Source of the DNA: Candidatus Nomurabacteria bacterium
GTDB lineage: Bacteria; Patescibacteriota; Minisyncoccia; Phycocordibacterales; UBA9973
Length of the DNA stretch: 64,000 bases
NCBI GenBank assembly: GCA_026395965.1
Contig: JAPLXS010000006.1
Span: 233,165-297,164 of the forward strand
Direction: 5' to 3'
Shown: piece by piece, positions 2,563 through 58,966 of the stretch
How the letters are laid out: each line of letters begins with the position of its first letter
Numbering within the stretch: the stretch's first letter is position 1
Program-made: the position numbers and the translations under genes
The notes under the pieces: model-generated
Databases searched by the model: none
Seen by the model: the letters and a program-made list of their open reading frames with translations, nothing else
What the model was told of the DNA's origin: nothing

Positions 2563-3054
2563 ATGAAAATACTATCAATCGATCCTGGTTTTGAAAGAGT
2601 TGGAATAGCTATCATAGAAAAAACTTTCTTAAAGAAGGATTTATTGGTGTACTCAAATTGTTTTAAAACATCAGCAAAGATTCCATTCCCCCACCGACTT
2701 AGAGACATAGGTCTTGAAATTGAAACAATCATAAAAAAATACAAACCCGAAGCACTGGCAATAGAAAAACTATATTTTACTACAAACCAAAAAACTGCTA
2801 TGGGTGTAGCTGAAGCACGAGGAACTATAATATATGTATGTTCAAAAAATAATCTTACTATTTATGAATACACACCTCCACAAATAAAAGTTGCTGTTAC
2901 GGGATATGGTAAAGCTACAAAGAGTATGGTGATGTCTATGGTTCCAAAACTTATAGATATGAATGCCGATATAAATTCAGACGATGAGATAGATGCTATC
3001 GCTATAGGGCTCACTTGTCTTGCTTGTGAAAATGCAGATTTTGTAAAAAAATAA
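2563..3054 (+). CDS. ruvC: Holliday junction resolvase RuvC
   Basis: N-terminal MKILSIDPGFERVGIAI RNase H-like motif, size 163 aa, adjacent to ruvB. Confidence 0.9.
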   Translation: MKILSIDPGFERVGIAIIEKTFLKKDLLVYSNCFKTSAKIPFPHRLRDIGLEIETIIKKYKPEALAIEKLYFTTNQKTAMGVAEARGTIIYVCSKNNLTIYEYTPPQIKVAVTGYGKATKSMVMSMVPKLIDMNADINSDDEIDAIAIGLTCLACENADFVKK

Positions 3055-3112
3055 AATAAGCCGTATTTAAAAGATTATATTGAGTATATTCAATATTTAT
3101 ATTTTATCGGGT

Positions 3113-3121
3113 TTATCCACA
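3113..3121 (+). promoter_or_regulatory. Isolated perfect DnaA box TTATCCACA
   Basis: Exact consensus 9-mer in ruvC-downstream intergenic region. Confidence 0.4.
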
Positions 3122-3188
3122 AACAAAAATGTTGCAAAGAAAATTATATTTTGATACAAATAGTAAATTATAATTTTATTTTAAATTT

Positions 3189-3386
3189 ATGAGTTATCTT
3201 GATGATGAAGAATTAAAAATAGGTATTGATGGAGAGGAAGAGGAAGACCTTGAAGAAAGTGATTCCGATGAAAATTTCCACGACTTACTTGATAGTGATA
3301 ATGACCTAGAATTAGACGACGCAGATGAGGAGGAAGAAGACCTCTTTGGTGATGAAGTCAAAGGACTAGAAGAACCAGAACTATAA
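3189..3386 (+). CDS. Small highly acidic protein (65 aa, about 50% D/E)
   Basis: ORF followed by strong terminator; composition DDEEL...EEEEDLEESDSDE...DDADEEEED. Confidence 0.4.
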   Translation: MSYLDDEELKIGIDGEEEEDLEESDSDENFHDLLDSDNDLELDDADEEEEDLFGDEVKGLEEPEL

Positions 3387-3424: not shown

Positions 3425-4620
3425 ATAATATTTATCTTACAAAATCTTTTTTTGCCGATTCTGTATACTCCTTGTTTTGCTGTATCTGTATACAAAGAAA
3501 CTTTTTCGTCTAGGTCTAGGTTTGTTACTGCGCCGGCCTCCACCAATCTACGAAATTCTCCTTTTGAATCAACTATTTTATTTATTAAAAATATATCTAT
3601 TAAACTCTCATCCTTTTTTACTGATATGTTTTCAACATTATCTGGAATTTCTTTTTTAGAGAAAGTATTTTCCCAGTTTTCTTTTGCTTGTTTTGCTTTT
3701 TTTTCTCCGTGGTATATAGATATCGTTTCTTCTGCTAGTCTCATTTTTAAATCACGGGGATTAACAGAGTTCAAGGAAAGTTCATTTGCCATATCTTCTA
3801 TCTCTGACATTGTTGTATTAGTACAAAGCTCAAATCCTGGCACTATCATTCCGTCTGTCCAGCTCATAATCTTTCCATACATCTCTTCTGGTGTATCTGA
3901 GAAGGCTATCATATTGCCTTCTGTTTTACCCATCTTTTTTCCAGAATTATCTTCGAGAAGTTTTATAGTTATTACAAACTTTTCTTTATTTTTTATTGTC
4001 TTCATTAGATCGCGACCACAAAGCATATTGAATGTCTGATCGTTACCTCCAACCTCTCCATCTACATTCATGGCAACAGAATCGTAGGCTTGCATAAGAG
4101 GATACATGAATTCATTTATGTATATTGGTTTGCCTTCTTTTATTCTTTTATCAAACATATCTCTTTCCAGCATTTGCTGGACTGTCATTTGTGAAGCAAG
4201 TGAAAGAACATCTTCAAAATTCATTTTACTGAGCCATTTTGAGTTAAATTTGAATTGGGCAGCATTTTTACCACTAAAAGACAAAAAAGTACTAGCTTGT
4301 TTTTTGTAATTCTTTAGGTTGGCCATTACTTCTTTTTTTGTAAGTTGTTTTCGTGCTGCACTTTTGTCTGTTGGGTCGCCTATCATTGCGGTAAAGTCAC
4401 CCATCAATAAGATAATCTTGTGTCCAGCTTTTTGGAATTCACTTAGTTTTTTAATTGGGATTGCATGACCAAGATGAAGTGTTGGTCCAGTAGGATCTAT
4501 TCCTAAATATATCGTTAGTTTTTCTCCGCGATTCATTTTACTTAAAATAAAATCCTTGGATGGATAAGCAGCAGAAATACCTCTAGTTAATAGGTCATCG
4601 TTTTTTGTATTGCTATTCAT
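3421..4620 (-). CDS. tyrS: Tyrosyl-tRNA synthetase with C-terminal S4 domain
   Basis: HIGH motif PTGPTLHLGH, KMSKS-like KKMGKTEGN, C-terminal S4-like segment. Confidence 0.9.
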   Translation of the reverse strand: MNSNTKNDDLLTRGISAAYPSKDFILSKMNRGEKLTIYLGIDPTGPTLHLGHAIPIKKLSEFQKAGHKIILLMGDFTAMIGDPTDKSAARKQLTKKEVMANLKNYKKQASTFLSFSGKNAAQFKFNSKWLSKMNFEDVLSLASQMTVQQMLERDMFDKRIKEGKPIYINEFMYPLMQAYDSVAMNVDGEVGGNDQTFNMLCGRDLMKTIKNKEKFVITIKLLEDNSGKKMGKTEGNMIAFSDTPEEMYGKIMSWTDGMIVPGFELCTNTTMSEIEDMANELSLNSVNPRDLKMRLAEETISIYHGEKKAKQAKENWENTFSKKEIPDNVENISVKKDESLIDIFLINKIVDSKGEFRRLVEAGAVTNLDLDEKVSLYTDTAKQGVYRIGKKRFCKINII

Positions 4621-8827: not shown

Positions 8828-10192
8828 TTATTTAAACATTATTCGAATCTTTTCAATTTCTTGTAATAATGACGGGTCGGTTTTTAGATCAGATTTTATT
8901 TTCAGGTGAGAGTGAATTACTGTTGTATGATCTCTATCCCCCAATTTTTGACCTATCAATGGATATGAGATATTGAAATCTTCACGGAGTAAATACATTG
9001 CGACTTGTCGGGCTCTAACTATTTCCTTTCTTCTTGTTTTTTCGTATATAACTTCTTCGGCTAAACCATAATAATCAGAAACAATTTTAACAATATCTTT
9101 AATAGCAACAGTCTTTTTGGGTCTAATGTTATTTTTTATAAGCATTTTAACCTCAGCTATTGTTAGGGATCTGTTTTTTAATTGAGACTGGCAAATAACA
9201 GTATTTAAACTACCCTCAAGCTCTCTTATATTCCCCTCGAGTGACTCTGCTAAAGAAGCAACTATTTCTGGTTCTATAATACAGTTTGTGGATTCAAATT
9301 TTGCTTTTATAATAGCAACTCTTGATTCGTAATCAGGCTCAACTATTTGTACTGTCATACCAGAAGCAAATCTAGACTGTAGTCTCTCTTCTAACCCTTG
9401 GATAAAATTGGGATGTTTATCTGAAGAAAATATTATCTGCTTGTTACTCTCGTATAAAGTATTAAAAAGATGAAATAACTCTTCTTGAGTCTTATCTTTA
9501 CCAGAAATAAATTGAATATCGTCCATAATGATAACATCATATTTTCTATATTTTTCTTTAAAAGAGTTTGGGTTTTTGTTTTGAATTGAGTTTATGTAAT
9601 CGATTGTAAATCTCTCTAGGCTGACATAATAAATCTTTTTTAAAGGGTAATTTATCTTTATTGTGTTGCCTATTGCCTGAATCATATGTGTTTTTCCTAA
9701 TCCTGTGCCACCATATACAAAAAACGGGTTATAGTTTTGCCCAGGGTTCGATATTATTGCTTGAGATACAGCATATGCCAGCTCATTGAATGGTCCAACT
9801 ATAAAAGAATTGAAATTATATTTTGGGTTTAAATTATCGTCTTTATTTACATATAAATCGTTGAGTGGAAGTTCTTTGTTTATATTTATAGGAGTTTTTG
9901 GGGTAGCTTTTTCTTCGTTCTTAGTTTCAGCGTCGTTTTTGGAATCTTGCTTGTGTATATAGTATTCAACAGCACGAATACTCTCTTCGTTGCTAATAAG
10001 GGTTTTTAAAATAAGTTTATGAAACTTGTTATATAGCCAATCTTTAACAAATTCATTTGGAACCCCAACATGAATAACACCACTATCCTCTTTGATTATA
10101 TAGGTATTTTTAAACCAAGTAGTAAAATTTGCCTTTGAAATACCTAATTCAATTTCAGATAGACATTTATTCCAGAGTTCTTTTGTTTCCAT
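8828..10192 (-). CDS. dnaA: Chromosomal replication initiator DnaA
   Basis: Walker A GGTGLGKTHM, DnaA signature helix-turn-helix VARQVAMYLLRE at C-terminus. Confidence 0.95.
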   Translation of the reverse strand: METKELWNKCLSEIELGISKANFTTWFKNTYIIKEDSGVIHVGVPNEFVKDWLYNKFHKLILKTLISNEESIRAVEYYIHKQDSKNDAETKNEEKATPKTPININKELPLNDLYVNKDDNLNPKYNFNSFIVGPFNELAYAVSQAIISNPGQNYNPFFVYGGTGLGKTHMIQAIGNTIKINYPLKKIYYVSLERFTIDYINSIQNKNPNSFKEKYRKYDVIIMDDIQFISGKDKTQEELFHLFNTLYESNKQIIFSSDKHPNFIQGLEERLQSRFASGMTVQIVEPDYESRVAIIKAKFESTNCIIEPEIVASLAESLEGNIRELEGSLNTVICQSQLKNRSLTIAEVKMLIKNNIRPKKTVAIKDIVKIVSDYYGLAEEVIYEKTRRKEIVRARQVAMYLLREDFNISYPLIGQKLGDRDHTTVIHSHLKIKSDLKTDPSLLQEIEKIRIMFK

Positions 10193-10310
10193 CCCGTTAG
10201 AGATAGTCCCCCAAAGGTGGGACGTATCATATTGATTATTATTAATTATTTATACAGTTAGTAATTATACAAACCACCATTAGAATATAACGAACATATC
10301 TCTAACGGGA
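10192..10310 (-). other. Inverted-repeat leader element, site 1: TCCCGTTAGAGATA ... TATCTCTAACGGGA, 3' arm abutting the dnaA ATG
   Basis: 14-bp perfect IR separated by about 90 bp; same architecture at 18395-18672 and 42583-42703 with covarying outer positions. Confidence 0.6.
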
Positions 10311-12009: not shown

Positions 12010-12477
12010 ATGTATAAAGATAAAATAAAGGAGGCAGTTGAAAGTATATTTAAACATACAGCTTGTACTATTACAAAGTGTGATTTTTCAGAAGAGAGTG
12101 GAATGCTTTGGTGTATGATAGAAACACCAGATTCAAACTTTATGATAGGTAGAGATGGGGAAACATTACGCTCACTCAACCATATAATTCAAAAGATTGT
12201 AGAAAAAGATACAATAAAAACAGAAGAAAAAGGACCAAGTATATTTATCGATATAAACGGTTATCAAAAAAAGCGATTTGAGAATTTAAAGAACATAGCT
12301 CACATGATGGCAGAGAGAGCCCGTTATTTTAAAAGCAATATAGAGATAGATCCAATGCCCGCATTTGAAAGAAGAATAGTACACATGTTCTTGGAAGGCG
12401 CCAAAGATATCAAAACAGAGTCAGAGGGCTACGGACCTACGAGAAGAGTTGTTATAAAATACATAGAGAGTAATTAA
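12010..12477 (+). CDS. jag: Jag/KhpB RNA-binding protein (KH + R3H domains)
   Basis: R3H motif RRIVHMFLEG...GYGPTRRVVI; downstream of yidC. Confidence 0.8.
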   Translation: MYKDKIKEAVESIFKHTACTITKCDFSEESGMLWCMIETPDSNFMIGRDGETLRSLNHIIQKIVEKDTIKTEEKGPSIFIDINGYQKKRFENLKNIAHMMAERARYFKSNIEIDPMPAFERRIVHMFLEGAKDIKTESEGYGPTRRVVIKYIESN

Positions 12478-12634
12478 GAATTAATAATTACGAATTAGGA
12501 ATAAAAAATACCATGACAGTGTCATGGTATTTTTTATCTAGTATTATTTTTTTAATTTTTAATTATTGTTCTCTCCCCTATTCCAATTCCTAATTCCTAA
12601 TTCCTAATTCGTAATTATTAATTCTTAATTATTT
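12471..12634. repeat. Heptamer array (12471-12502), terminator hairpin (12503-12536), then inverted 8-unit heptamer array (12579-12634)
   Basis: taattaagaattaataattacgaattaggaata | aaaaaataccatgacagtgtcatggtatttttt | tattccaattcctaattcctaattcctaattcgtaattattaattcttaattattt; stop codons of jag and of the 503 aa gene lie inside the arrays. Confidence 0.7.
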
Positions 12635-14136
12635 AACCCCAACCCCCACAATGTTGAATCTTTTTTATTTGTAAAGAATAATGTTTTTTCTTGTTTGTCT
12701 AAAAATAAATTAGTTCCGTCTACTGGAGTTTCTGAAGTTGAATTAGCTATTGTTTCAGAATCTCCAGTTGTAGAATTTATTTTTATAAAAAAATCATCAA
12801 AAGAAACCAATCCTTGATACCAAGAGTCAGGATACTGATTTCCATTAATAACATTTGGAACACTACAGTAAATGGTTATATTGTCTATACTCCATACACA
12901 TTTGTCTGACAAACCATATCTATCTAGTTCTTTTGTAGTGTGTTTTTTAATATCAAAAATTGATAGTTTGGGGCCACTAGATGTAGATGTGCTAAACAAA
13001 ACAAGAGAACCATTGTGGTTTACTAAAGTGGTGAGCCCAGGTACTCCCCCAAAAACCTTTGTAGTAGTTTTAGTTGTTGTATTTAAAACAAAGATAGTGC
13101 CATTTGCAGTATAAGATGGTTTTGTTGTTAGATATATTTTTTGATTGTTATCCCATTGTGATAGCCATTCTGTAAAAGGAGAATTAAAAACTATATCTTT
13201 TTTTGTGTTTCCAAATGTTCCGACGACACCAGATGCACCGTTGTTGTTTTCTGTTATATAGAAAAATTTAGTTTTATCGATAGAAGTGCTAAAATCAGAA
13301 ATATTTTGAGGTAAAAATTCTCCAGACGGAGCACCAAGCGAAGCCATAAAACTATTTATAGATTTATCTTCTGAGAGATATCTGTAAACAAAAGTATTAC
13401 CTGTATTATCAAAAAAAGTTTCATAAATACTTGGAATTGTAGAATTTGAAATCTTCTCTTTGTTTTTTGTATCTAAAAACATTTTATATATGTGGCCGTT
13501 CATCCTCTCTACGTATCTTATAGAAGGAGCTATCTCTGTAGTTCTTATTGGTGTTGTTGCCCCACCTTGTGCTATTTTTGTAAAATATGGAGCTGTAAAA
13601 GTATCTATTTTTCCTGTAACTCCCAAGTTGTTTAATTTTTGGAAAGATTTTATTGCATCTACTGTTTTTTTATCTAAAACCCCAGTTGTTGCTAGTTGTG
13701 GTTTTAGAGAAAGTGTAGTATTTAGAAATTTTTGAATTTCAATTCTACCCGCTTTTGTATCAGGAGATATTACTACCCTAGCTGGCTCAGGAGCCTGTAC
13801 TACTTGCGTATTTGGATTAACTGCTATTGGTCTTATATCGTCCAAAAAGGTGGCACCAGCAACAGAAAAGTCTGTTATTTGGTAGAACTTATTGACTGGT
13901 GTTGTAGATGTTCCTTGGTCTTGATTTTGAACTTCAGTTGATGTTTCATTGTTTGTAATAGGTGTTGTTGCAACCTGGCTACCATTACCAAAAGGGTTAA
14001 AACTTTGATACCAAGATGATTGGGTGTTTGTAGTACTAACACTAGGATTCTTGCTAGACCAAAAGTAAAAACCAAGGATAATTATCCCTACTATTATAAA
14101 TGTTGTTATAAAAATGATTTTTGTTTTTTGTGGCAT
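12625..14136 (-). CDS. Membrane-anchored secreted protein with peptidoglycan-binding domain and beta-rich C-terminal region
   Basis: N-terminal TM, T/S/Q-rich linker, PG_binding_1-like LATTGVLDKKTVDAIKSFQKLNNLGVTGKIDTFTAPYF. Confidence 0.55.
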   Translation of the reverse strand: MPQKTKIIFITTFIIVGIIILGFYFWSSKNPSVSTTNTQSSWYQSFNPFGNGSQVATTPITNNETSTEVQNQDQGTSTTPVNKFYQITDFSVAGATFLDDIRPIAVNPNTQVVQAPEPARVVISPDTKAGRIEIQKFLNTTLSLKPQLATTGVLDKKTVDAIKSFQKLNNLGVTGKIDTFTAPYFTKIAQGGATTPIRTTEIAPSIRYVERMNGHIYKMFLDTKNKEKISNSTIPSIYETFFDNTGNTFVYRYLSEDKSINSFMASLGAPSGEFLPQNISDFSTSIDKTKFFYITENNNGASGVVGTFGNTKKDIVFNSPFTEWLSQWDNNQKIYLTTKPSYTANGTIFVLNTTTKTTTKVFGGVPGLTTLVNHNGSLVLFSTSTSSGPKLSIFDIKKHTTKELDRYGLSDKCVWSIDNITIYCSVPNVINGNQYPDSWYQGLVSFDDFFIKINSTTGDSETIANSTSETPVDGTNLFLDKQEKTLFFTNKKDSTLWGLGLNN

Positions 14137-14147
14137 ATGTTTTTAAA

Positions 14148-15392
14148 TTAATGACCAGCATTAGGTCCAGTTGACCAATGCCAATTTTCTTTGGGTAAAT
14201 TCTTGAATCCATAGTTTATCGCATTTTTTTGTAGCCAAGTAAAACATTCTTTTGTGCTGGCTACTTTTTCAAATTTAGGATTTTGATTATCCCAATTAAT
14301 CAATTTTCCGTTACATTTTAAATCAACCGCAAGACCTTGCTCATGGTTTGATGTTCCTGGTTTTGCTGTTTGGGGTTTACATGAACTAGCGGGAACTGTT
14401 AACTTTGGGGCTGGGCAGTTTTTATTTCTTAGTGCTGTTTGCTCATCAAGTGACCTATATCCCCCTCCAGATAAAGTTATACCACCTAAATTAAAAGCAT
14501 CAGCAATCATAAGTTGAAGTTTTGGAGCGTAAGCAGAACAAAATCTAAAATTAGCTGTTTTTGTTTGTACCATTCTTGTTCCACCCGGGCAGTTATCAAA
14601 ACTATTTTTAGTTGGAGCTAAAGAACCCTCGTCTGATAGTATTGGTATTTCTTCTTCTTCTATTCCTGCAGTAACCGGATCGATTTTTACCCCTCCCCCT
14701 CCTAGTAGGTCTGGGTTGATAGTGTTTAATAAAGCATAAGAACCTAGTGCTATAAGTAGTCCAAGTATTGAGTTTTTTATTCTACCTTTTGCTTCTGTTT
14801 TACCAAAAATTGATTCATTACCCATATATTGAACACCACCTATAACAATCATTATAACAGCGAGCACAGCACAGAGACCTATGGCGATATTAAATATTGA
14901 ATTAAAATAAGTACCAATATTATCTGGTGCTGTTTTCATTCCTCCTATAGGAGCGAGGAGATTATAAACTTTTTCAGAAAATGTACCTGAAGAAGTTGTT
15001 CCTGGTGTTATGGTAACAACTTGTGTCTCTGTGGGGATAACAACAGCAGGAGTAACTTGTTCTGCGTGAGTTTGACTATCTAGTATTTTATAGAAGCATC
15101 CTTTTTTTAGTTCTAGTATTTTTTCTTGTGCAGTTCCCCCGTAAATTTCTGAATTAACCATTACTTTTTTGTCGTTATTGCAAGTCTGAAAAGCAGCTAT
15201 ATTTTTTGACACATTATGAGTATCAGAATAAGGAGATGTGTAGGGCTCTGTAGCTCCTTTCAATGGTATAGTAAAATAATAAACAGTGTCTGTTATTGCG
15301 CTAACTGTTTTTATTAATGAAAAAAATATAAATAAATATATAAATATATAAAATAATTTTTTATTTTTTGTTTGAGATTTATTTTTTTTCAT
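14148..15392 (-). CDS. Membrane protein with paired hydrophobic helices and C-terminal M15 (VanY-like, LAS family) zinc peptidase domain; putative secretion-system-associated cell-wall hydrolase
   Basis: N-terminal signal/TM, two hydrophobic helices IFNIAIGLCAVLAVIMIVIGG / ILGLLIALGSYALL, Gly-rich linker, M15 motif SNHEQGLAVDL. Confidence 0.6.
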   Translation of the reverse strand: MKKNKSQTKNKKLFYIFIYLFIFFSLIKTVSAITDTVYYFTIPLKGATEPYTSPYSDTHNVSKNIAAFQTCNNDKKVMVNSEIYGGTAQEKILELKKGCFYKILDSQTHAEQVTPAVVIPTETQVVTITPGTTSSGTFSEKVYNLLAPIGGMKTAPDNIGTYFNSIFNIAIGLCAVLAVIMIVIGGVQYMGNESIFGKTEAKGRIKNSILGLLIALGSYALLNTINPDLLGGGGVKIDPVTAGIEEEEIPILSDEGSLAPTKNSFDNCPGGTRMVQTKTANFRFCSAYAPKLQLMIADAFNLGGITLSGGGYRSLDEQTALRNKNCPAPKLTVPASSCKPQTAKPGTSNHEQGLAVDLKCNGKLINWDNQNPKFEKVASTKECFTWLQKNAINYGFKNLPKENWHWSTGPNAGH

Positions 15393-16565: not shown

Positions 16566-18395
16566 TTATGAATTTGTTGAAAGTAAGTCTTTCTTGGCTT
16601 TTTGAATAGCAAGTATTTGTGATGGATCTGAAGTAATGATCTGGTCCTCTGTATAAGAAGCTATTGTTTTAATAGCAACGTGTTTTAGCCCAGCAAAGAA
16701 TATACCCTCGCCTACATTTGCTTCAAGTAAGAGGTATTTTTCTTCATCTGTGAGGTTGAAAGTCTTTTGTAATACATCTATGGTTGCTGGGGATTGTTTC
16801 AAGAGTAGTTGAATAGATGAGTTTGTAACAATAGGTATACCATAAGGACTTTTCATAAAATCTCCTACGTCCTGAGTGATAGTAGCAAGACCTAGATAGT
16901 ATTTACGTCCTCTTTTTGCAATAGAATACAAGAAAGAAGCAGTATCTTCTGATTTCATCATCCACCAAGCCTCATCAACTACGAGCAATCTCTTTTTGAT
17001 ATTTTTACGGATAGAATTCCAAATATAGTGAGTGATTATATACATTGCGACAGGCTTAAGCTCATCCTCCATGTCTCTAACAGAAAAAACAATAAATTTT
17101 CTATTTATATCTACGTTTGAAGGCTGGTTTAAGAATGAAGCCCAAGAACCATGAGTATATTTTACCAATCTCTGCATAAGAGACTCACTTCCCTCCATAC
17201 CAGAAAGAACTACTTCAAAGTCTGAGAGCATTGGAGGTTCAATATTCATGAAATCTGAATTGGTTGTTATGTCTTTCAAGGCATAAGTTTCAGTAATAGC
17301 AGAGTCAACAAGTGAATCTTCTTCTGGTGTAAGTCCACCAAGCATTATTCTAAATAGACCAACAAGATTTATGGTATTTGCACGGAGTACATCAGCACCA
17401 GTTTCATCTCCTGTAGGTATTGGTAAGTCAAAAGGGTTTATGTGGTGGTCTGAAGAAAGAGCAATGTTGAAATATCTACCTCCCACTGCTTCTGCTAGGT
17501 ATTCGTATTCGCGTTCAGGGTCTATAACAATAACTTCTGTATCAAACATCAAAGTACGAATAATCTCTAGTTTTGTGGCATAAGATTTACCTGCACCAGC
17601 TGTAGCAAAGGTAATAGAGTTGTAGTTTGGTAAAGAAAATCTATCAAAAAGTATAAGACTAGAGTTATGACGGTTTACCCCATATAGTATTCCCCTATCT
17701 TCTGTTAGGTCAAAGGATACAAATGGGAAAATACTTGAAAGAGGTTCAGTATTTAGTTTTTGGTGTATACCTAAAATATCTGTACCTAATGGTATGACAC
17801 TTTTGAAGCCCTCATTTTGTTGAAATAATGCAGGTTTAAGATAAATAAGCTTTGAATCTAGAAGAGATTTTATCTCGTTCTCAATTTTAAATAAATCATT
17901 GTCATTCTCGGCATATACAGTGATATAAAGCCCGACATCAAACATTTTCTCTTGAGCTTGCATTAGATTGTTTCTCAAATCCTCTAGGTCTCTGTATGCT
18001 GTATCTAGCATCGGGTCACGAACGAGACCTTTTGATTCACGAATAGAAATCTGACTTTGAACCTCAGCTACTTTTTTCTGGAAAGATCTCATTATTTCTG
18101 CTGTATCTATAGGATGAATAAAAATAGAAATATCATAAACCTTGTCCAGGTTTATGATTGGAGAAAACCAGTTGTCACTGAGGTATCTTGGGTATGATAT
18201 TACGAAAAATGTTCTAGCTATTTTATCTCCAAGATTTAAAGATTTTGGTGTTATTTGAAGAGCAGAAGGAGCAATAATATCTTGTAGCTCAAGAGTTGCA
18301 GCTTTGTAGATTTCACTAGGCAAAACAGGCATAACCATACTTCGGTTATTTTTAAGATCGTCCCCTTTTCCAAATAATGATGAAAATATTGACAT
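16566..18395 (-). CDS. VirB4/PrgJ-type type IV secretion ATPase, central + ATPase portion (apparent C-terminal fragment of a split gene)
   Basis: VirB4 mid-region ARTFFVISYPRYL, Walker A ATAGAGKSYATK, Walker B RLLVVDEAWWMM. Confidence 0.8.
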   Translation of the reverse strand: MSIFSSLFGKGDDLKNNRSMVMPVLPSEIYKAATLELQDIIAPSALQITPKSLNLGDKIARTFFVISYPRYLSDNWFSPIINLDKVYDISIFIHPIDTAEIMRSFQKKVAEVQSQISIRESKGLVRDPMLDTAYRDLEDLRNNLMQAQEKMFDVGLYITVYAENDNDLFKIENEIKSLLDSKLIYLKPALFQQNEGFKSVIPLGTDILGIHQKLNTEPLSSIFPFVSFDLTEDRGILYGVNRHNSSLILFDRFSLPNYNSITFATAGAGKSYATKLEIIRTLMFDTEVIVIDPEREYEYLAEAVGGRYFNIALSSDHHINPFDLPIPTGDETGADVLRANTINLVGLFRIMLGGLTPEEDSLVDSAITETYALKDITTNSDFMNIEPPMLSDFEVVLSGMEGSESLMQRLVKYTHGSWASFLNQPSNVDINRKFIVFSVRDMEDELKPVAMYIITHYIWNSIRKNIKKRLLVVDEAWWMMKSEDTASFLYSIAKRGRKYYLGLATITQDVGDFMKSPYGIPIVTNSSIQLLLKQSPATIDVLQKTFNLTDEEKYLLLEANVGEGIFFAGLKHVAIKTIASYTEDQIITSDPSQILAIQKAKKDLLSTNS

Positions 18396-18672
18396 CCCGT
18401 TAGAGATAGGAAGCGCCTAATCTGTTTTTAAGATAACGCTTACCCATTCCCGATTTTAAATATAATTCTCTCGACCGAGCTTTTTTCTCGCTCTTACATG
18501 CTTCATAATAAATAATTTCAAACGGACCTCTTCCTTTTGTATAAGTAGACAAACCATTGTTGTGTTGCAGAAGGCGTTTCCGTAAATCTTTTGTACTTCC
18601 TGTGTATATATTACCATCTTTTTTACTTTTTAATATATAAGTGTAATAAAACATATATAATCTCTAACGGGA
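18395..18672 (-). other. Inverted-repeat leader element, site 2 (TCCCGTTAGAGAT ... ATCTCTAACGGGA) with GIY-YIG gene nested between the arms
   Basis: 13-bp perfect IR; GIY-YIG ATG 5 nt inside the upstream arm, its TAA stop inside the downstream arm, which directly abuts the VirB4 ATPase ORF ATG. Confidence 0.6.
18400..18654 (-). CDS. Small GIY-YIG nuclease family protein (UPF0213/YhbQ-like)
   Basis: FYYTYILKSKKDGNIYTGSTKDLRKRLLQHNNG...YTKGRGPFEIIYYE, 84 aa. Confidence 0.8.
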   Translation of the reverse strand: MFYYTYILKSKKDGNIYTGSTKDLRKRLLQHNNGLSTYTKGRGPFEIIYYEACKSEKKARSRELYLKSGMGKRYLKNRLGASYL

Positions 18673-18683
18673 CCAGTATAATA

Positions 18684-19337
18684 TTATTGTAGTTTCATTC
18701 CTTGGCTAGTGTCGCCAGGGTTAAATGTTTTATAAAAAAGCTCGACTACTTGGTCTGTTTTAAGTTGAGAAGTTCTGATGCCTACTCTACCAAGACCACT
18801 GATAATAACACCTACTCTCTGGTCGAGCTGTGTACGCTTCTCCTCAAATGAAGCCATATCCATTGCCTTTTTTGTATCTTCTATTTGTTTTTTTGGAGCA
18901 CCGCTTCCCATAAAACTATCCATCATTTTATTGCTAGACTTTATAACATTTGCACTGTAAGGTACAACAATAAAAAAAGTTTTTGTCATTATATTTACTT
19001 CGTCAGTAAATGATTTTATGAAGTCTATGTATTCTTTGGTTTGTATTTTTAAAAGAGGCTCTGTTTGCTCTTTTAATCTTTCTTCTAGGGTCATTAGGTA
19101 TGGGCGTATGTCCAATCTGCGTGATTGCATACATATTTGAGTTGGAAAATCTAAACCGTTGAGAAAATTTTGGAACTCACTTATGATAGCTGTTTGTTCG
19201 TCTGCTGATTTAAGAGATAAGTTTAGAGAAGATGCTAGTAGTATAGAACGAAGACCACCATCCTTTAGTATGATGATGCCATTTCTTACTTCTTTAATTG
19301 GTACAAACTCCTGAGAGCTTTTTGCATCTATTGCCAT
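18684..19337 (-). CDS. VirB4/PrgJ N-terminal domain protein (apparent N-terminal fragment of split VirB4)
   Basis: Gram-positive VirB4 N-terminal pattern QEFVPI..NGIIILKDG...LNLSL...EQTAIISEFQNFLNGLD..TQI. Confidence 0.55.
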   Translation of the reverse strand: MAIDAKSSQEFVPIKEVRNGIIILKDGGLRSILLASSLNLSLKSADEQTAIISEFQNFLNGLDFPTQICMQSRRLDIRPYLMTLEERLKEQTEPLLKIQTKEYIDFIKSFTDEVNIMTKTFFIVVPYSANVIKSSNKMMDSFMGSGAPKKQIEDTKKAMDMASFEEKRTQLDQRVGVIISGLGRVGIRTSQLKTDQVVELFYKTFNPGDTSQGMKLQ

Positions 19338-19340
19338 ATA

Positions 19341-19446
19341 AAATAATTACGAATTAATAATTACGAATTTATAACTAATAACATTGTACCATATTACAAA
19401 TAATTAAGAATTATTAACCTTACTCCCTAATTCCTAATTATTAATT
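19341..19446. repeat. Heptamer arrays (19341-19370 and 19401-19419 forward; 19425-19446 reverse) in the 5' leader of the VirB4-N ORF
   Basis: aaataattacgaattaataattacgaattt ... taattaagaattattaacc ... ccctaattcctaattattaattt. Confidence 0.6.
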
Positions 19447-19455
19447 TATAATTAT

Positions 19456-19875
19456 TTACTCCTTCTCTCCTCTATTACTATCCTGCACATCTAAACTCCA
19501 CGAAAGGTCTTTTAGTTTATTTGATGTAACCATAGGAACAACAGATACTAGTTGTGGAGTAGAAGATTCTTCTTTTTCTTTAATTTCTGGTTTTACAAGT
19601 CTTTGTTTCCATATATATAATTTACCAGAAATAAAATAATTAAAGGCAGCTTCAAGGTAATAGATAAATGGCTTTTCATTTATCTTGTAAAATACCAAAA
19701 GAAATGACAATACACCTATGGGTATTATTAAAAATATACCAATCCACAAAGGAAATAATTTATAAACAACAAAGGCCATACCAGCCCCACCAACAATATA
19801 TATAAATTGGCGAAAAGTAAAAGGGCCAAATAATTTGTCCTCGACGTCAATAAATTGTGGTACTTTGAATTGCAT
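19456..19875 (-). CDS. PrgI/VirB3-like small two-TM type IV secretion protein
   Basis: 139 aa, pattern DVEDKLFGPFTFRQFIYIVGGAGMAFVVY + second TM, located upstream of VirB4 as in PrgI-PrgJ. Confidence 0.55.
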   Translation of the reverse strand: MQFKVPQFIDVEDKLFGPFTFRQFIYIVGGAGMAFVVYKLFPLWIGIFLIIPIGVLSFLLVFYKINEKPFIYYLEAAFNYFISGKLYIWKQRLVKPEIKEKEESSTPQLVSVVPMVTSNKLKDLSWSLDVQDSNRGEKE

Positions 19876-19883
19876 ATAATGGG

Positions 19884-19915
19884 TAATTACGAATTAGGAA
19901 TTAATAATTACGAAT
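19884..19915 (+). repeat. Heptamer array (forward) left of the four-helix-bundle gene
   Basis: taattacgaattaggaattaataattacgaat. Confidence 0.6.
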
Positions 19916-19921
19916 GAACGA

Positions 19922-20272
19922 TTAAGATCTGGATGTTTTTATAATCGAACCAAGTATTTTTAATAATTCTTCACATTCACACATAAGTGTACCAGATTGT
20001 TCCTTGTTTAGAAAACCACTATCTGATAAAAGCTGTAACCAATAAAGTGTTTCCCTTGCCTCTTTGTATGAAATACTCATCTTTGAGATGAAATCATTTT
20101 TTGATTGTGCCCCTATTGCCTCCTCTATATTTGCCCCAATAGATGTTCCGGATCGAATTAATTGTTTTGAAAGAATAAATTCTTTTTTGTCTTTAGTTAA
20201 ATCCTGATATATTTTTATTATATTAAGACTGAAGGCATAACTCTTACTTCTTACGATATTGTCCGACTTCAT
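19922..20272 (-). CDS. Four-helix-bundle protein (TIGR02436-like; family commonly found in 23S rRNA intervening sequences)
   Basis: QLIRSGTSIGANIEEA...KMSISYKEARETLYWLQLL signature, 116 aa. Confidence 0.75.
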   Translation of the reverse strand: MKSDNIVRSKSYAFSLNIIKIYQDLTKDKKEFILSKQLIRSGTSIGANIEEAIGAQSKNDFISKMSISYKEARETLYWLQLLSDSGFLNKEQSGTLMCECEELLKILGSIIKTSRS

Positions 20273-20285
20273 TTTTTTTGATTTA

Positions 20286-20318
20286 AATTCTTAATTCCTA
20301 ATTATTAATTCTTAATTT
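20286..20318 (-). repeat. Heptamer array (reverse orientation) right of the four-helix-bundle gene
   Basis: aattcttaattcctaattattaattcttaatttt, inverted relative to 19884-19915. Confidence 0.6.
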
Positions 20319-42076: not shown

Positions 42077-42583
42077 TTAGTATATTAAATATTTACGGTA
42101 ATTGTTTGATAGATCTAGAAAATCATCTGCTTGTTCTTTGAGTTTCATAGACGCACTTTTTCCAAATGATACAACTTCTACTTGAACCCCAGATGTACTC
42201 TGTAAATATTCGACAAGTGGTACAAAATCTCCATCACCAGCAACCAATACGACAGCATCTAGCTTGGGCGCCATCTTCATGGCATCAACTGCTAGTCCAA
42301 CATCCCAGTCACCCTTTTTTGCTCCACCAGCAAAAATTTGTAATTCTTTTGTTCTGGTTTCTATTCCAAGTTTTGTTAATGCTTCAAAAAAATTTTTCTC
42401 TTCCCCTCCTTCACTTGTGATAACATATGCAATTGCACGAACTAGTTTACGACCAGCAACTGCATCTTTTAAAACTGCACCAAAGTTTACTTTTCTTTTA
42501 TATAAATTTTTAGCAGAATGATATAGATTTGATGTATCTATAAAAACTCCTACTCTTTGTTCTTTGTGTTTTATTACGCTCAT
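42077..42583 (-). CDS. NYN-domain (LabA-like PIN-fold) protein
   Basis: VGVFIDTSNL...GDWDVGLAVDAM...LVAGDGDFVPLV. Confidence 0.7.
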   Translation of the reverse strand: MSVIKHKEQRVGVFIDTSNLYHSAKNLYKRKVNFGAVLKDAVAGRKLVRAIAYVITSEGGEEKNFFEALTKLGIETRTKELQIFAGGAKKGDWDVGLAVDAMKMAPKLDAVVLVAGDGDFVPLVEYLQSTSGVQVEVVSFGKSASMKLKEQADDFLDLSNNYRKYLIY

Positions 42584-42703
42584 CCCGTTAGAAGCAGGTC
42601 GTGGTCTTTAGAAAACTCACATACCTACTTAATTAAAATTATTATATTATATTATATAAACCCGTTCTTTTTATAGAAACCATGACCGCGGCTTCTAACG
42701 GGA
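42583..42703 (-). other. Inverted-repeat leader element, site 3: TCCCGTTAGAAGC ... GCTTCTAACGGGA, 3' arm abutting the NYN gene ATG
   Basis: 13-bp IR with conserved CCCGTTAG/CTAACGGG core and covarying outer bases relative to sites 1 and 2. Confidence 0.6.
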
Positions 42704-43301: not shown

Positions 43302-44240
43302 ATGATTACCTATTTAGAACAATTAAAAAGAGAATTTCTTGAACATGTAGAAATAGAGAAAGGCAATAGTTTGAAAACTGTAAATAATTACGATTATTAT
43401 ATTGGCCGTTTTTTTGATTTTGCAAAAATTTCTGAACCAAAAGAAATATCTGATGAAAAAATTCGTGAATATCGTTTATATTTAAATCGTCAGCCTGGTG
43501 TAAAAATCCGTGGACAAGAATCTGGTAATCTTAAAAAAAATACTCAAAATTATCATCTAATTGCATTGAGGTCTTTTCTTAAATATTTAATGAAAAGAGG
43601 TATCACTTCCCTATCACCTGAACGTATAGACTTGGCAAAAATAAAGGAAAGAAGTTTGGATTTAATATCTAGCGCAGAGCTTAATAGACTATTGTCTGCC
43701 CCTCTTACTTTAGCATCTACAGATAATAAATTCGACGGCCCCAAAAAATTAAGAGACAAGGCAATTTTAGAATTATTTTTTTCTACAGGTTTACGCTTGT
43801 CAGAATTGTGTTCTATAAATAGGGATCTTGATTTATCTAAAGATGAATTCTCTATTCGTGGTAAAGGAGAAAAAGTCCGAGTTGTATTTTTATCTGACTC
43901 AGCCAAAGATGCAATACGCGAATATTTAAAAATCCGCAAAGATATGGATGAACCACTTTTTATTCAATACTCTCAAAATAGCGGAAAAAGTAACAGACTC
44001 ACTCCACGCTCAGTAGAACGAATTGTAAAATACTATGCTATCGTTGCCGGTATTTCAAAAAAAGTTACACCCCATATCATAAGACACTCATTTGCTACAG
44101 ACTTGCTTTCAAATGGTGCAGATATTCGTTCTGTCCAAATGATGCTAGGTCACGCCAATATTGCTACTACTCAGATATATACTCATATTACAGACAAACA
44201 ACTTCGTGATGTTCATAAGAAATTTCATAGTAAAAAATAA
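43302..44240 (+). CDS. xerD: Tyrosine site-specific recombinase XerC/XerD family
   Basis: R..HxxR..Y catalytic set: HIIRHSFATDLL...LGHANIATTQIYTH. Confidence 0.85.
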   Translation: MITYLEQLKREFLEHVEIEKGNSLKTVNNYDYYIGRFFDFAKISEPKEISDEKIREYRLYLNRQPGVKIRGQESGNLKKNTQNYHLIALRSFLKYLMKRGITSLSPERIDLAKIKERSLDLISSAELNRLLSAPLTLASTDNKFDGPKKLRDKAILELFFSTGLRLSELCSINRDLDLSKDEFSIRGKGEKVRVVFLSDSAKDAIREYLKIRKDMDEPLFIQYSQNSGKSNRLTPRSVERIVKYYAIVAGISKKVTPHIIRHSFATDLLSNGADIRSVQMMLGHANIATTQIYTHITDKQLRDVHKKFHSKK

Positions 44241-58917: not shown

Positions 58918-58966
58918 TAATTAATTACGAATTAAGAATTAAAAATTACGAATTGATAATTAATAA
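58918..58966 (+). repeat. Heptamer array directly upstream of the nusA start codon
   Basis: taattaattacgaattaagaattaaaaattacgaattgataattaataa. Confidence 0.6.

Follow-up and report, generated by a model that had tools for sequence, protein, structure and literature searches.

What does it mean when a gene for a small GIY-YIG nuclease lies exactly between two open reading frames (ORFs) that resemble successive parts of one secretion ATPase? This question is raised by a 64,000-nt stretch of a Candidatus Nomurabacteria genome (assembly GCA_026395965.1, contig JAPLXS010000006.1, positions 233,165 to 297,164), here called the window. A sequence-only reading of the window had proposed that the gene for VirB4, an ATPase of the type IV secretion system (T4SS), was split into an N-terminal and an ATPase ORF by the inserted nuclease gene. 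Our data point to a different history, with a probability of roughly 0.8: a trsD-like gene followed by virB4 is the ancestral two-gene layout, and a mobile GIY-YIG cassette that rebuilds the start codon of its host gene has been inserted between the two. The three minus-strand ORFs, together with the peptide motifs quoted from them, were found where the sequence-only reading had placed them:

18684 to 19337, minus strand: trsD-like gene, 217 aa, a free-standing homologue of the VirB4 N-terminal region.
18400 to 18654, minus strand: GIY-YIG nuclease ORF, 84 aa, of the UPF0213/YhbQ type (PF01541).
16566 to 18395, minus strand: virB4 ATPase gene, 609 aa, matching the CD1110-type VirB4 profile.

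The 609-aa ORF is an intact virB4 ATPase gene, full length for its clade. It scores above the VirB4 family cut-off (NCBIfam NF045971, conju_CD1110; 363.5 bits vs 325) and covers positions 183–734 of the 752 in this profile. Walker A (GAGKS) and Walker B (LLVVDEAW) boxes are readable in its translation, and in the PDB it matched the VirB4 C-terminal domain 4AG5 (E 3.4e-38) and also TrwK. Its relatives are ~604–613 aa long and 80–95% identical to it. Profile positions 1–182, which the ORF lacks, are encoded by a separate upstream gene, and the same is true of 78 of 78 relatives.

The 217-aa ORF is a normal, conserved T4SS gene and not a fragment. It matches CD1110 positions 2–134 of 752, so the two ORFs do represent successive, non-overlapping parts of VirB4, as had been claimed. 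It also matches VirB4_plasma, the mycoplasma VirB4 model (positions 102–238, E 1.5e-9), and the TrsD model NF041427 (positions 13–143 of 201, E 1.4e-6), the latter with 28.3 bits against a cut-off of 200. A PDB sequence search with this protein gave no significant match, and only a fold search pointed, weakly, to VirB4: the 13 best PDB matches of its AlphaFold model, itself of moderate quality (predicted local distance difference test score 65), were all TrwK/VirB4, at E 0.04–0.3 and template-modelling scores of 0.25–0.39.

We fetched 80 trsD-virB4 loci from different species genomes, and 78 of them hold both genes. The N gene ends in its own stop codon in all 78. In 64, the ATPase ATG lies −4 to 15 nt after that stop, in any of the three frames and with nothing between, the commonest spacing being 1 nt. 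A GIY-YIG gene stands between the two genes only in loci L002 and L005; seven loci have a gene-less insert of 119–130 nt at this position, three have other spacers of 26–84 nt, and two were not clearly classified. The comparison of orthologous loci thus turned against the proposed split: relatives, 76 of 78 of them without a GIY-YIG neighbour, encode the N domain as a separate ORF with its own stop. Homologue lengths tell the same story. Among database homologues of the 217-aa protein, the best 120 (78–100% identity; Nomurabacteria and Paceibacteria) are all 215–219 aa long. A HMMER search of 50%-identity cluster representatives returned 2,280 relatives, and among the best 150 of these (35–78% identical) only two are ~800–900 aa long; the homologues are still free-standing at 35–50% identity. 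In the two rare long relatives, P0359 (797 aa) and P0382 (898 aa), the TrsD-like region spans residues 5–213; they may be true TrsD-VirB4 fusions.

Free-standing TrsD has been described in these bacteria. A 2025 study found it to be the most abundant T4SS component of Patescibacteria, with 2,272 homologues in 3,035 genomes; it is present in 2,221 of the 3,035 assemblies, mostly adjoining virB4, and free-standing proteins of the kind seen here are counted there as TrsD homologues (PMC12102498). The operon context in the window agrees with that study (PrgI, a T4SS-pilin/VanY fusion protein, and dnaA ~6.4 kb away). In the monoderm-type (MPF-FATA, prototype pGO1) and Patescibacteria systems with TrsD and TrsE/VirB4, the gene for a shorter VirB4 is likewise immediately preceded by one for a free-standing ~200-aa VirB4-N homologue; the same operon encodes PrgI/VirB3 and a T4SS pilin-like protein and lies near dnaA. 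Nothing essential differs in the window, whose operon adds the GIY-YIG cassette and a four-helix-bundle gene as variable inserts. Because the 78 related loci all have a stop after the N gene, and in view of the homologue lengths and the known TrsD, the split must be ancestral. The 217-aa and 609-aa ORFs are the ordinary two-gene Patescibacteria T4SS arrangement, and since this layout is already known, there is no gene-splitting event to explain.

This leaves the nuclease gene itself, which lies within a discrete unit:

18395 to 18672, minus strand: complete 278-bp cassette, including the terminal bases T...A, inserted at the virB4 start codon.
18660 to 18672, minus strand: 5' terminal inverted repeat, TCCCGTTAGAGAT in gene orientation, one arm of a perfect 13-nt repeat.
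18395 to 18407, minus strand: 3' terminal inverted repeat, ATCTCTAACGGGA, which holds the GIY-YIG stop codon TAA (18400–18402); base 18395 is the A of the virB4 ATG.

That the GIY-YIG gene is a genuine insertion was borne out: 76 of 78 related loci lack it at this site, and inverted repeats enclose it. The perfect 13-nt repeat brackets the gene, and the ATPase ATG directly abuts the 3' arm (CTAACGGG followed by ATG), as had been noticed. The arm does not, however, supply the stop of the upstream ORF, as had been supposed: that ORF ends at its own TAA (18684–18686), a stop that all relatives share and that is outside the cassette, separated from the 5' arm by 11 nt. The TAA of the 3' arm terminates the GIY-YIG ORF. 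The repeat motif is not a chance match. The window contains exactly six copies of CCCGTTAGA, arranged in three inverted pairs that belong to the GIY-YIG unit and to two shorter units at the starts of dnaA and of an NYN-domain gene.

The cassette is a member of a large family. We fetched 80 metagenome loci encoding GIY-YIG relatives at 62–89% identity, 75 of them with both flanks, and found both arms next to the GIY-YIG ORF in 69 of the 75. Pooling the window with all 160 fetched loci and removing duplicates gave a set of 91 elements of at least 90 nt. The element is directly followed by ATG in 72 of these and by GTG in six; the background of ATG is 1.55% per position. An ORF of at least 60 codons is opened by 74 of these 78 ATG/GTG sites, compared with 20% for random ATGs. 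Ten downstream proteins were scanned, and seven match Pfam profiles from positions 1–4 (RuvX, MurG, enolase, transaldolase, an aconitase-family protein, an NYN protein and an ABC ATPase); the other scanned host genes encode FtsH, RecJ and a class II aminoacyl-tRNA synthetase. Further host genes are dnaA and the prgI, trsD and virB4 genes of the T4SS operon. The 54 GIY-YIG elements found next to a start codon all have the orientation of their host gene, without exception.

Insertion is accompanied by a short target duplication, measured here as identity between the 4 nt before one terminal base and the 4 nt after the other. A perfect duplication was found in 56 of the 91 elements, against a mean of 18.9 and a maximum of 31 in shuffled comparisons. 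Where ATG stands at both ends, the two following nucleotides are the same at both ends in 47 of 50 elements (shuffled mean 21.5, maximum 33). Insertions away from start codons also have 4-nt duplications (TAAA, TTAA, TTCA and CTGG). The ATG is followed by AA at 60% of element sites vs 26% of background starts, and a preference for ATG followed by purines is the only one visible at the DNA level.

The outermost base of the element accounts for the start codon. Among 64 distinct arm pairs, each arm position from 0 to 12 shows Watson-Crick symmetry in 57–64 pairs; positions 0 and 10–12 covary, and pairing ends after position 12. The base outside CCCG...CGGG covaries as well, being T...A in 49 distinct arm pairs and C...G in 13. 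Elements ending in C...G give their host a GTG start, with ATG kept in the left copy. It is therefore the element that contributes the first base of the host start codon. The anatomy is host A, TGNN, the element (T-arm ... arm-A), and TGNN again, with the start codon made of the last base of the element and the duplication. Since the terminal base and the duplicated TGNN re-create the host start after the 3' arm, the host ORF stays whole.

Several observations indicate that these elements move. The window cassette is 95.7% identical to the copy in L005 and 90.6% identical to that in L002, whereas the flanking trsD and virB4 genes are 77–84% identical; identity drops to the level of the flanks at the element borders, with no co-conversion tract. 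At the virB4 site the GIY-YIG cassette was found only in the window, L002 and L005, and gene-less copies occupy the site in other loci. In a neighbour-joining tree of virB4, the nearest relative of the window, L001, has an empty site, and loci with gene-less inserts are scattered over the tree. Other starts in the same operon are also filled in some relatives: the trsD start holds a GIY-YIG cassette in L107 and a gene-less copy in L086, with empty comparators present, and the prgI start holds a GIY-YIG cassette in L086, L100 and L103 and is empty in the window. In L107, the cassette at the trsD start (2984–3259) shares the operon with a gene-less copy at the virB4 start (~3915–4038).

Three copies of the element lie within the 64-kb window. 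The two short copies, their host genes and the empty prgI site are as follows (a slash marks the element border):

10193 to 10309, minus strand: gene-less 117-nt derivative abutting the dnaA start; flanks ATGGAT/CCCG...CGGG/ATGGAA, with duplicated ATGGA.
8828 to 10192, minus strand: dnaA, whose start codon is abutted by the 117-nt element.
42584 to 42702, minus strand: gene-less 119-nt element abutting the start of the NYN-domain gene; flanks ATGAGT/.../ATGAGC, with duplicated ATGAG.
42077 to 42583, minus strand: NYN-domain gene, whose start codon is abutted by the 119-nt element.
19456 to 19875, minus strand: prgI/virB3-like gene (PF12666) of the same operon as virB4, with an empty start site.

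Over 12 nt at the 5' end and 14 nt at the 3' end, the dnaA-start element agrees with the GIY-YIG cassette and, judged by these ends, is a short form of it. The NYN-start element has the same terminal 9-mer and the longer arms of another subtype, CCCGTTAGAAGC...GCTTCTAACGGG (AGAAGC...GCTTCT). Across the loci, gene-less derivatives that share the cassette ends measure 94–146 nt. Those of type A keep 12 nt of the cassette 5' end and 14–17 nt of its 3' end, retaining up to TTCCTATCTCTAACGGG and thus including the last GIY-YIG codons, which is in keeping with their having arisen by internal deletion. At the virB4 site, the seven inserts without a gene also end like the GIY-YIG unit (gtCCCGTTAGA...TCTAACGGG/ATG). 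A 131-nt element in L124 (2659–2789) consists of the 5' arm, the last ~40 GIY-YIG codons and the 3' arm, and looks like an intermediate between the full cassette and the gene-less derivatives.

Type A copies (window 10193–10309, L001 1100–1211, L054 4248–4365 and L075 1618–1763) also have a short GC-rich hairpin just before the 3' arm. It occurs as GTCCCAC..GGGGGAC, GGAAATGTAAACATTTCC and CCCCATG..GATGGGG, and this pairing, kept through different sequences, suggests a conserved subterminal structure. We saw no support for a conserved peptide or reading frame in the gene-less copies, as the ORF from the left ATG reaches the TAA of the 3' arm in only 3 of 14. Tandem elements were seen in L001 (~1090–1211), L144 (~390–688) and L135 (upstream of the GIY-YIG ORF), where the 3' arm of one element is followed by ATGAAT and the 5' arm of the next; a second insertion at a rebuilt or duplicated ATG would be expected to give such tandems.

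The only ORF of the cassette encodes the GIY-YIG nuclease; no recognised class of transposase (DDE, HUH, serine, tyrosine or Cas1) is encoded. The assignment made from sequence alone was upheld by Pfam PF01541 (67 bits vs a cut-off of 22.6). The GIY, YIG, Arg, His and Glu positions (Y..Y, YTG, R, H, E) are at least 95% conserved in 73 distinct homologues. Nearly the whole protein is catalytic domain (residues 3–69), and Pfam found no DNA-binding domain. Matches to homing-endonuclease profiles are weak: TIGR01453 (E 8e-6, with 26 bits against a cut-off of 56), phrog_314 (E 1e-6) and the PADLOC HEase model (E 7e-4). The closest solved structures are the UPF0213 proteins BH0048 (PDB 1ZG2, E 1.8e-9) and EF2693 (1YWL, 9e-4), both themselves deposited as hypothetical proteins. 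UPF0213/YhbQ (COG2827) proteins share the single-domain architecture and are ~85–100 aa long. An exact-sequence look-up of the nuclease from the window returned no identical record.

How the nuclease is expressed differs between subfamilies. In the 276-nt subfamily of the window, its ORF has an ATG within the element and closes with the TAA of the 3' arm, which leaves 4 nt to the host ATG. By contrast, a single ORF extends from the duplicated host ATG across both arms to an ATGA overlap in 17 of the 36 elements whose left ATG is intact. These are mostly from a sister subfamily of 272–278 nt, in which the 5' arm is translated as PVRD and the 3' arm as SLTG (M-x-PVRD...SLTG) and the TGA stop overlaps the rebuilt host ATG. 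The databases hold 2,527 proteins of one subfamily at E ≤1e-5. Among the best 120 of these, 98 begin with M-x-P-V-R and 102 end with SLTG; at the second position the residue varies among N, S, I, D, R, H and T, the amino acids expected from NNT codons. As read from these frames, the sister-subfamily nuclease appears to have no start codon of its own and to borrow the duplicated host ATG. Only copies that land on a working start codon would then make nuclease, and this, combined with host selection, could account for the bias towards start codons. The cassette shows no recognisable promoter and is probably expressed from the transcription and translation signals of its host. Stop-to-start spacing of 4 nt and ATGA overlaps are arrangements known to permit termination-reinitiation, so ribosomes may be handed over to the host gene.

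From the observed anatomy, distribution, target duplication and start-codon rebuilding, the following course of events can be proposed. Cassettes would integrate between A and TGNN (A/TGNN), most often at ATGAA, with a 4-bp target duplication, and the terminal A of the element (G in one subgroup) would join the duplicated TGNN to re-create the host start after the 3' arm. Lying in the same orientation as the host gene, the cassette would be transcribed and translated from host signals, and termination-reinitiation would pass ribosomes on to the host gene. At virB4, the native coupling of trsD to virB4 would have been replaced by a relay from trsD through the GIY-YIG gene to virB4. The nuclease would be the mobility enzyme of the element, and the gene-less copies of 94–146 bp would be its non-autonomous derivatives.

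We go one step further only tentatively, at rather less than even odds: the family may be a new class of prokaryotic transposon, a start-codon parasite with a GIY-YIG mobility enzyme of ~85–95 aa that integrates at A/TGNN. The nuclease might then cut a hairpin or cruciform formed by the 13-bp arms. Such an element would borrow the host promoter and ribosome entry and, in one subfamily, the start codon as well, and would then rebuild the start and, by coupling its own stop to it, hand ribosomes to the host gene.

Several points weigh against the mobile-cassette reading or its details. The 84-aa GIY-YIG domain lacks a DNA-binding module, strand transfer is beyond a nuclease acting alone, and integration with a 4-nt duplication has no ready mechanism. 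A perfect 4-nt duplication is missing from 35 of the 91 elements. The left duplicate is no longer intact in the window, L002 and L005 copies, which read ACTGGT and ATCTGT where ATGNNT would stand, so the duplication at the virB4 site of the window is deduced from the family. The higher identity of element than of flanks could also come from constraint at the nucleotide level or from gene conversion among copies, and the start-codon bias may stem in part from selection on the host and not from target recognition. The virB4 tree is a crude neighbour-joining tree without support values.

The most serious alternative is a passive cassette, comparable to a mobile insertion cassette or a MITE (miniature inverted-repeat transposable element), that is moved in trans by another transposase or by host recombination and carries the GIY-YIG gene as cargo, for example as an addiction, repair or defence nuclease. 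Terminal inverted repeats with a 4-nt duplication are typical of elements moved by DDE transposases, we know of no GIY-YIG domain that catalyses integration on its own, and gene-less copies with the same ends occur at the same kinds of site. This alternative fits less well with the constancy of the association: in 69 of 75 loci, at 62–100% protein identity, the GIY-YIG gene comes with the arms, and one subfamily has a nuclease reading frame that takes in both of them. No transposase was noticed near the three window copies, in an inspection that was not a systematic transposase scan of the window or the genomes; the only recombinase seen near them is a XerC/D-like gene (43302–44240). We consider cargo status unlikely.

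Homing is an improbable alternative. Here the nuclease would cut empty alleles with a relaxed, ATG-proximal specificity, and the gene would be copied by recombinational repair. Homing endonucleases have a sequence-specific DNA-binding domain and one cognate site, and their spread is accompanied by co-conversion of the flanks. The weak homing-endonuclease profile matches and the nearly identical elements at the same site in diverged genomes would be in keeping with this. The sequence-only reading had drawn a comparison with free-standing homing-endonuclease genes of phages, and part of it stands: like the phage GIY-YIG genes (Seg proteins and I-TevI-type domains), this is a small, selfish, patchy gene between conserved genes. 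The rest of the comparison fails. Unlike its phage counterparts, the cassette has only an 84-aa catalytic domain and no DNA-binding domain, ends in 13-nt inverted repeats with a 4-nt target duplication (neither of which homing predicts), and has gene-less derivatives. Its targets are dozens of unrelated genes that have in common only an ATG followed by purines, and beyond its borders identity is at flank level, without co-conversion. We also scanned viral contigs for the exact pattern arm-(230–260 nt)-arm-ATG and found none, although this narrow pattern makes for a weak negative.

It is very improbable that the units are immobile regulatory RNA hairpins of the host, serving as RNase III sites or in translational control, with the GIY-YIG ORF incidental. 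The arms are predicted to close the units into a 13–20-bp stem directly before the AUG (z = −2.7 to −5.3; dnaA-start element stem −3.7, NYN-start element fold −5.3), and both their covariation and their constant position before start codons would suit an RNA element. Yet orthologous sites in close relatives are filled or empty in a patchy manner, target duplications are found even at non-start sites, and copies occur in tandem. A scan of the whole window at Rfam gathering thresholds returned only four tRNAs and no match to the cassette as an RNA family. A role at the RNA level could coexist with mobility without replacing it.

The initial proposal, in which a continuous virB4 of ~826 aa was cut by a homing-endonuclease-like insertion that supplied a stop and an ATG, does justice to the successive profile matches, the position of the GIY-YIG gene and the ATG abutting the arm, but can hardly be true and is ruled out as an explanation of the split by the 78 related loci (76 with the same two ORFs, own stop and ATG, in varying frames and with no GIY-YIG gene between), the uniform ~217-aa free-standing homologues, the standing of TrsD as a separate T4SS protein and the N-gene stop outside the element.

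Two further candidates were rejected. A functional partnership between the GIY-YIG protein and the T4SS is ruled out, as the gene is at this site in 2 of 78 relatives and its homologues precede many unrelated genes. The GTTAGA/TCTAAC of the arms recalls attC core sites, but an integron cassette does not fit: the repeats flank the ORF in place of one 3' attC, the inserts are single and at the starts of conserved genes and not in arrays, and no integron integrase was noticed nearby.

Among known elements, the cassettes most resemble insertion sequences and MITEs, such as the Correia elements of Neisseria and IS5-type elements with 4-bp duplications. They share terminal inverted repeats, target duplication, many copies, short non-autonomous derivatives, transcripts that form hairpins beside genes, and filled and empty orthologous sites. 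Unlike these elements, the cassette has a GIY-YIG nuclease as its only protein, is almost confined to start codons in strict host orientation, rebuilds the start codon with its terminal base, and in one subfamily lacks a start of its own. To our knowledge, GIY-YIG nucleases are not a recognised class of transposase. Neither "GIY-YIG transposase" nor "GIY-YIG transposon" occurs in the papers listed by the search that included these phrases. No description of start-codon-targeting GIY-YIG cassettes was found in the searchable full-text literature, and since this literature leaves out most subscription journals, an earlier description is possible. A related case is known from rRNA genes of the Candidate Phyla Radiation, where intervening sequences and non-intron GIY-YIG insertions have stem-forming inverted repeats and a small ORF (a 23S rRNA intervening-sequence protein or a GIY-YIG protein), are scattered over several sites and are reported as not spreading by homing (PMC11270868). 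Those insertions target rRNA helices, whereas the cassettes target the start codons of protein genes; the two may nevertheless belong to one family.

The T4SS operon and the window have other features of note. A gene for a 116-aa four-helix-bundle/23S rRNA intervening-sequence protein (PF05635, TIGR02436; 19922–20272, minus strand) lies between a 373-aa ORF and prgI, flanked by a 38-nt imperfect inverted repeat (82% complementary; 19892–19929 and 20280–20317). Its homologue is present in only 14 of 80 related loci and in L026 lies between prgI and trsD, not upstream of prgI. With this patchy and shifting distribution it looks like a second variable cassette of the operon. The motif AATTC[G/T/C]TAATTA occurs 17 times in the window at up to one mismatch, compared with 1.3 expected (2390, 7466, 11119, 12471–12631, 19344–19440, 19884–19916, 20293, 35982 and 58922–58954). 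Around trsD, prgI and the four-helix-bundle gene its copies fall within intergenic spacers, some of them 14 nt apart, and make up the inverted repeats that surround the four-helix-bundle gene and those that lie between prgI and trsD. The same spacers in relatives hold other lineage-specific short units (CTACTAC... in L022, AGTAGGA... in L005). The operon also encodes a 414-aa protein (14148–15392, minus strand) in which a T4SS pilin domain (PF18895) is joined to a VanY D-Ala-D-Ala carboxypeptidase domain, adjoined by a peptidoglycan-binding-domain protein (12625–14136).

The cassettes form a transposon-like, widespread family whose lifestyle is centred on start codons. At 278 bp, the cassette may be a very small and very widespread selfish element. 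The family has a practical consequence for annotation, as gene callers can be led astray by the translated arms (M-x-PVRD and SLTG) and the duplicated ATG when they place the starts of essential genes in metagenome-assembled genomes. If the nuclease drives mobility, this would add a nuclease family to the enzymes of transposition and suggest a function for part of the large UPF0213/YhbQ family. Insertion at start codons with regeneration of the start appears to be an answer to the near absence of intergenic space in these genomes, and a start-codon parasite of this kind, if the reading is true, could colonise even essential genes (dnaA, ftsH, murG, virB4) in very compact genomes.

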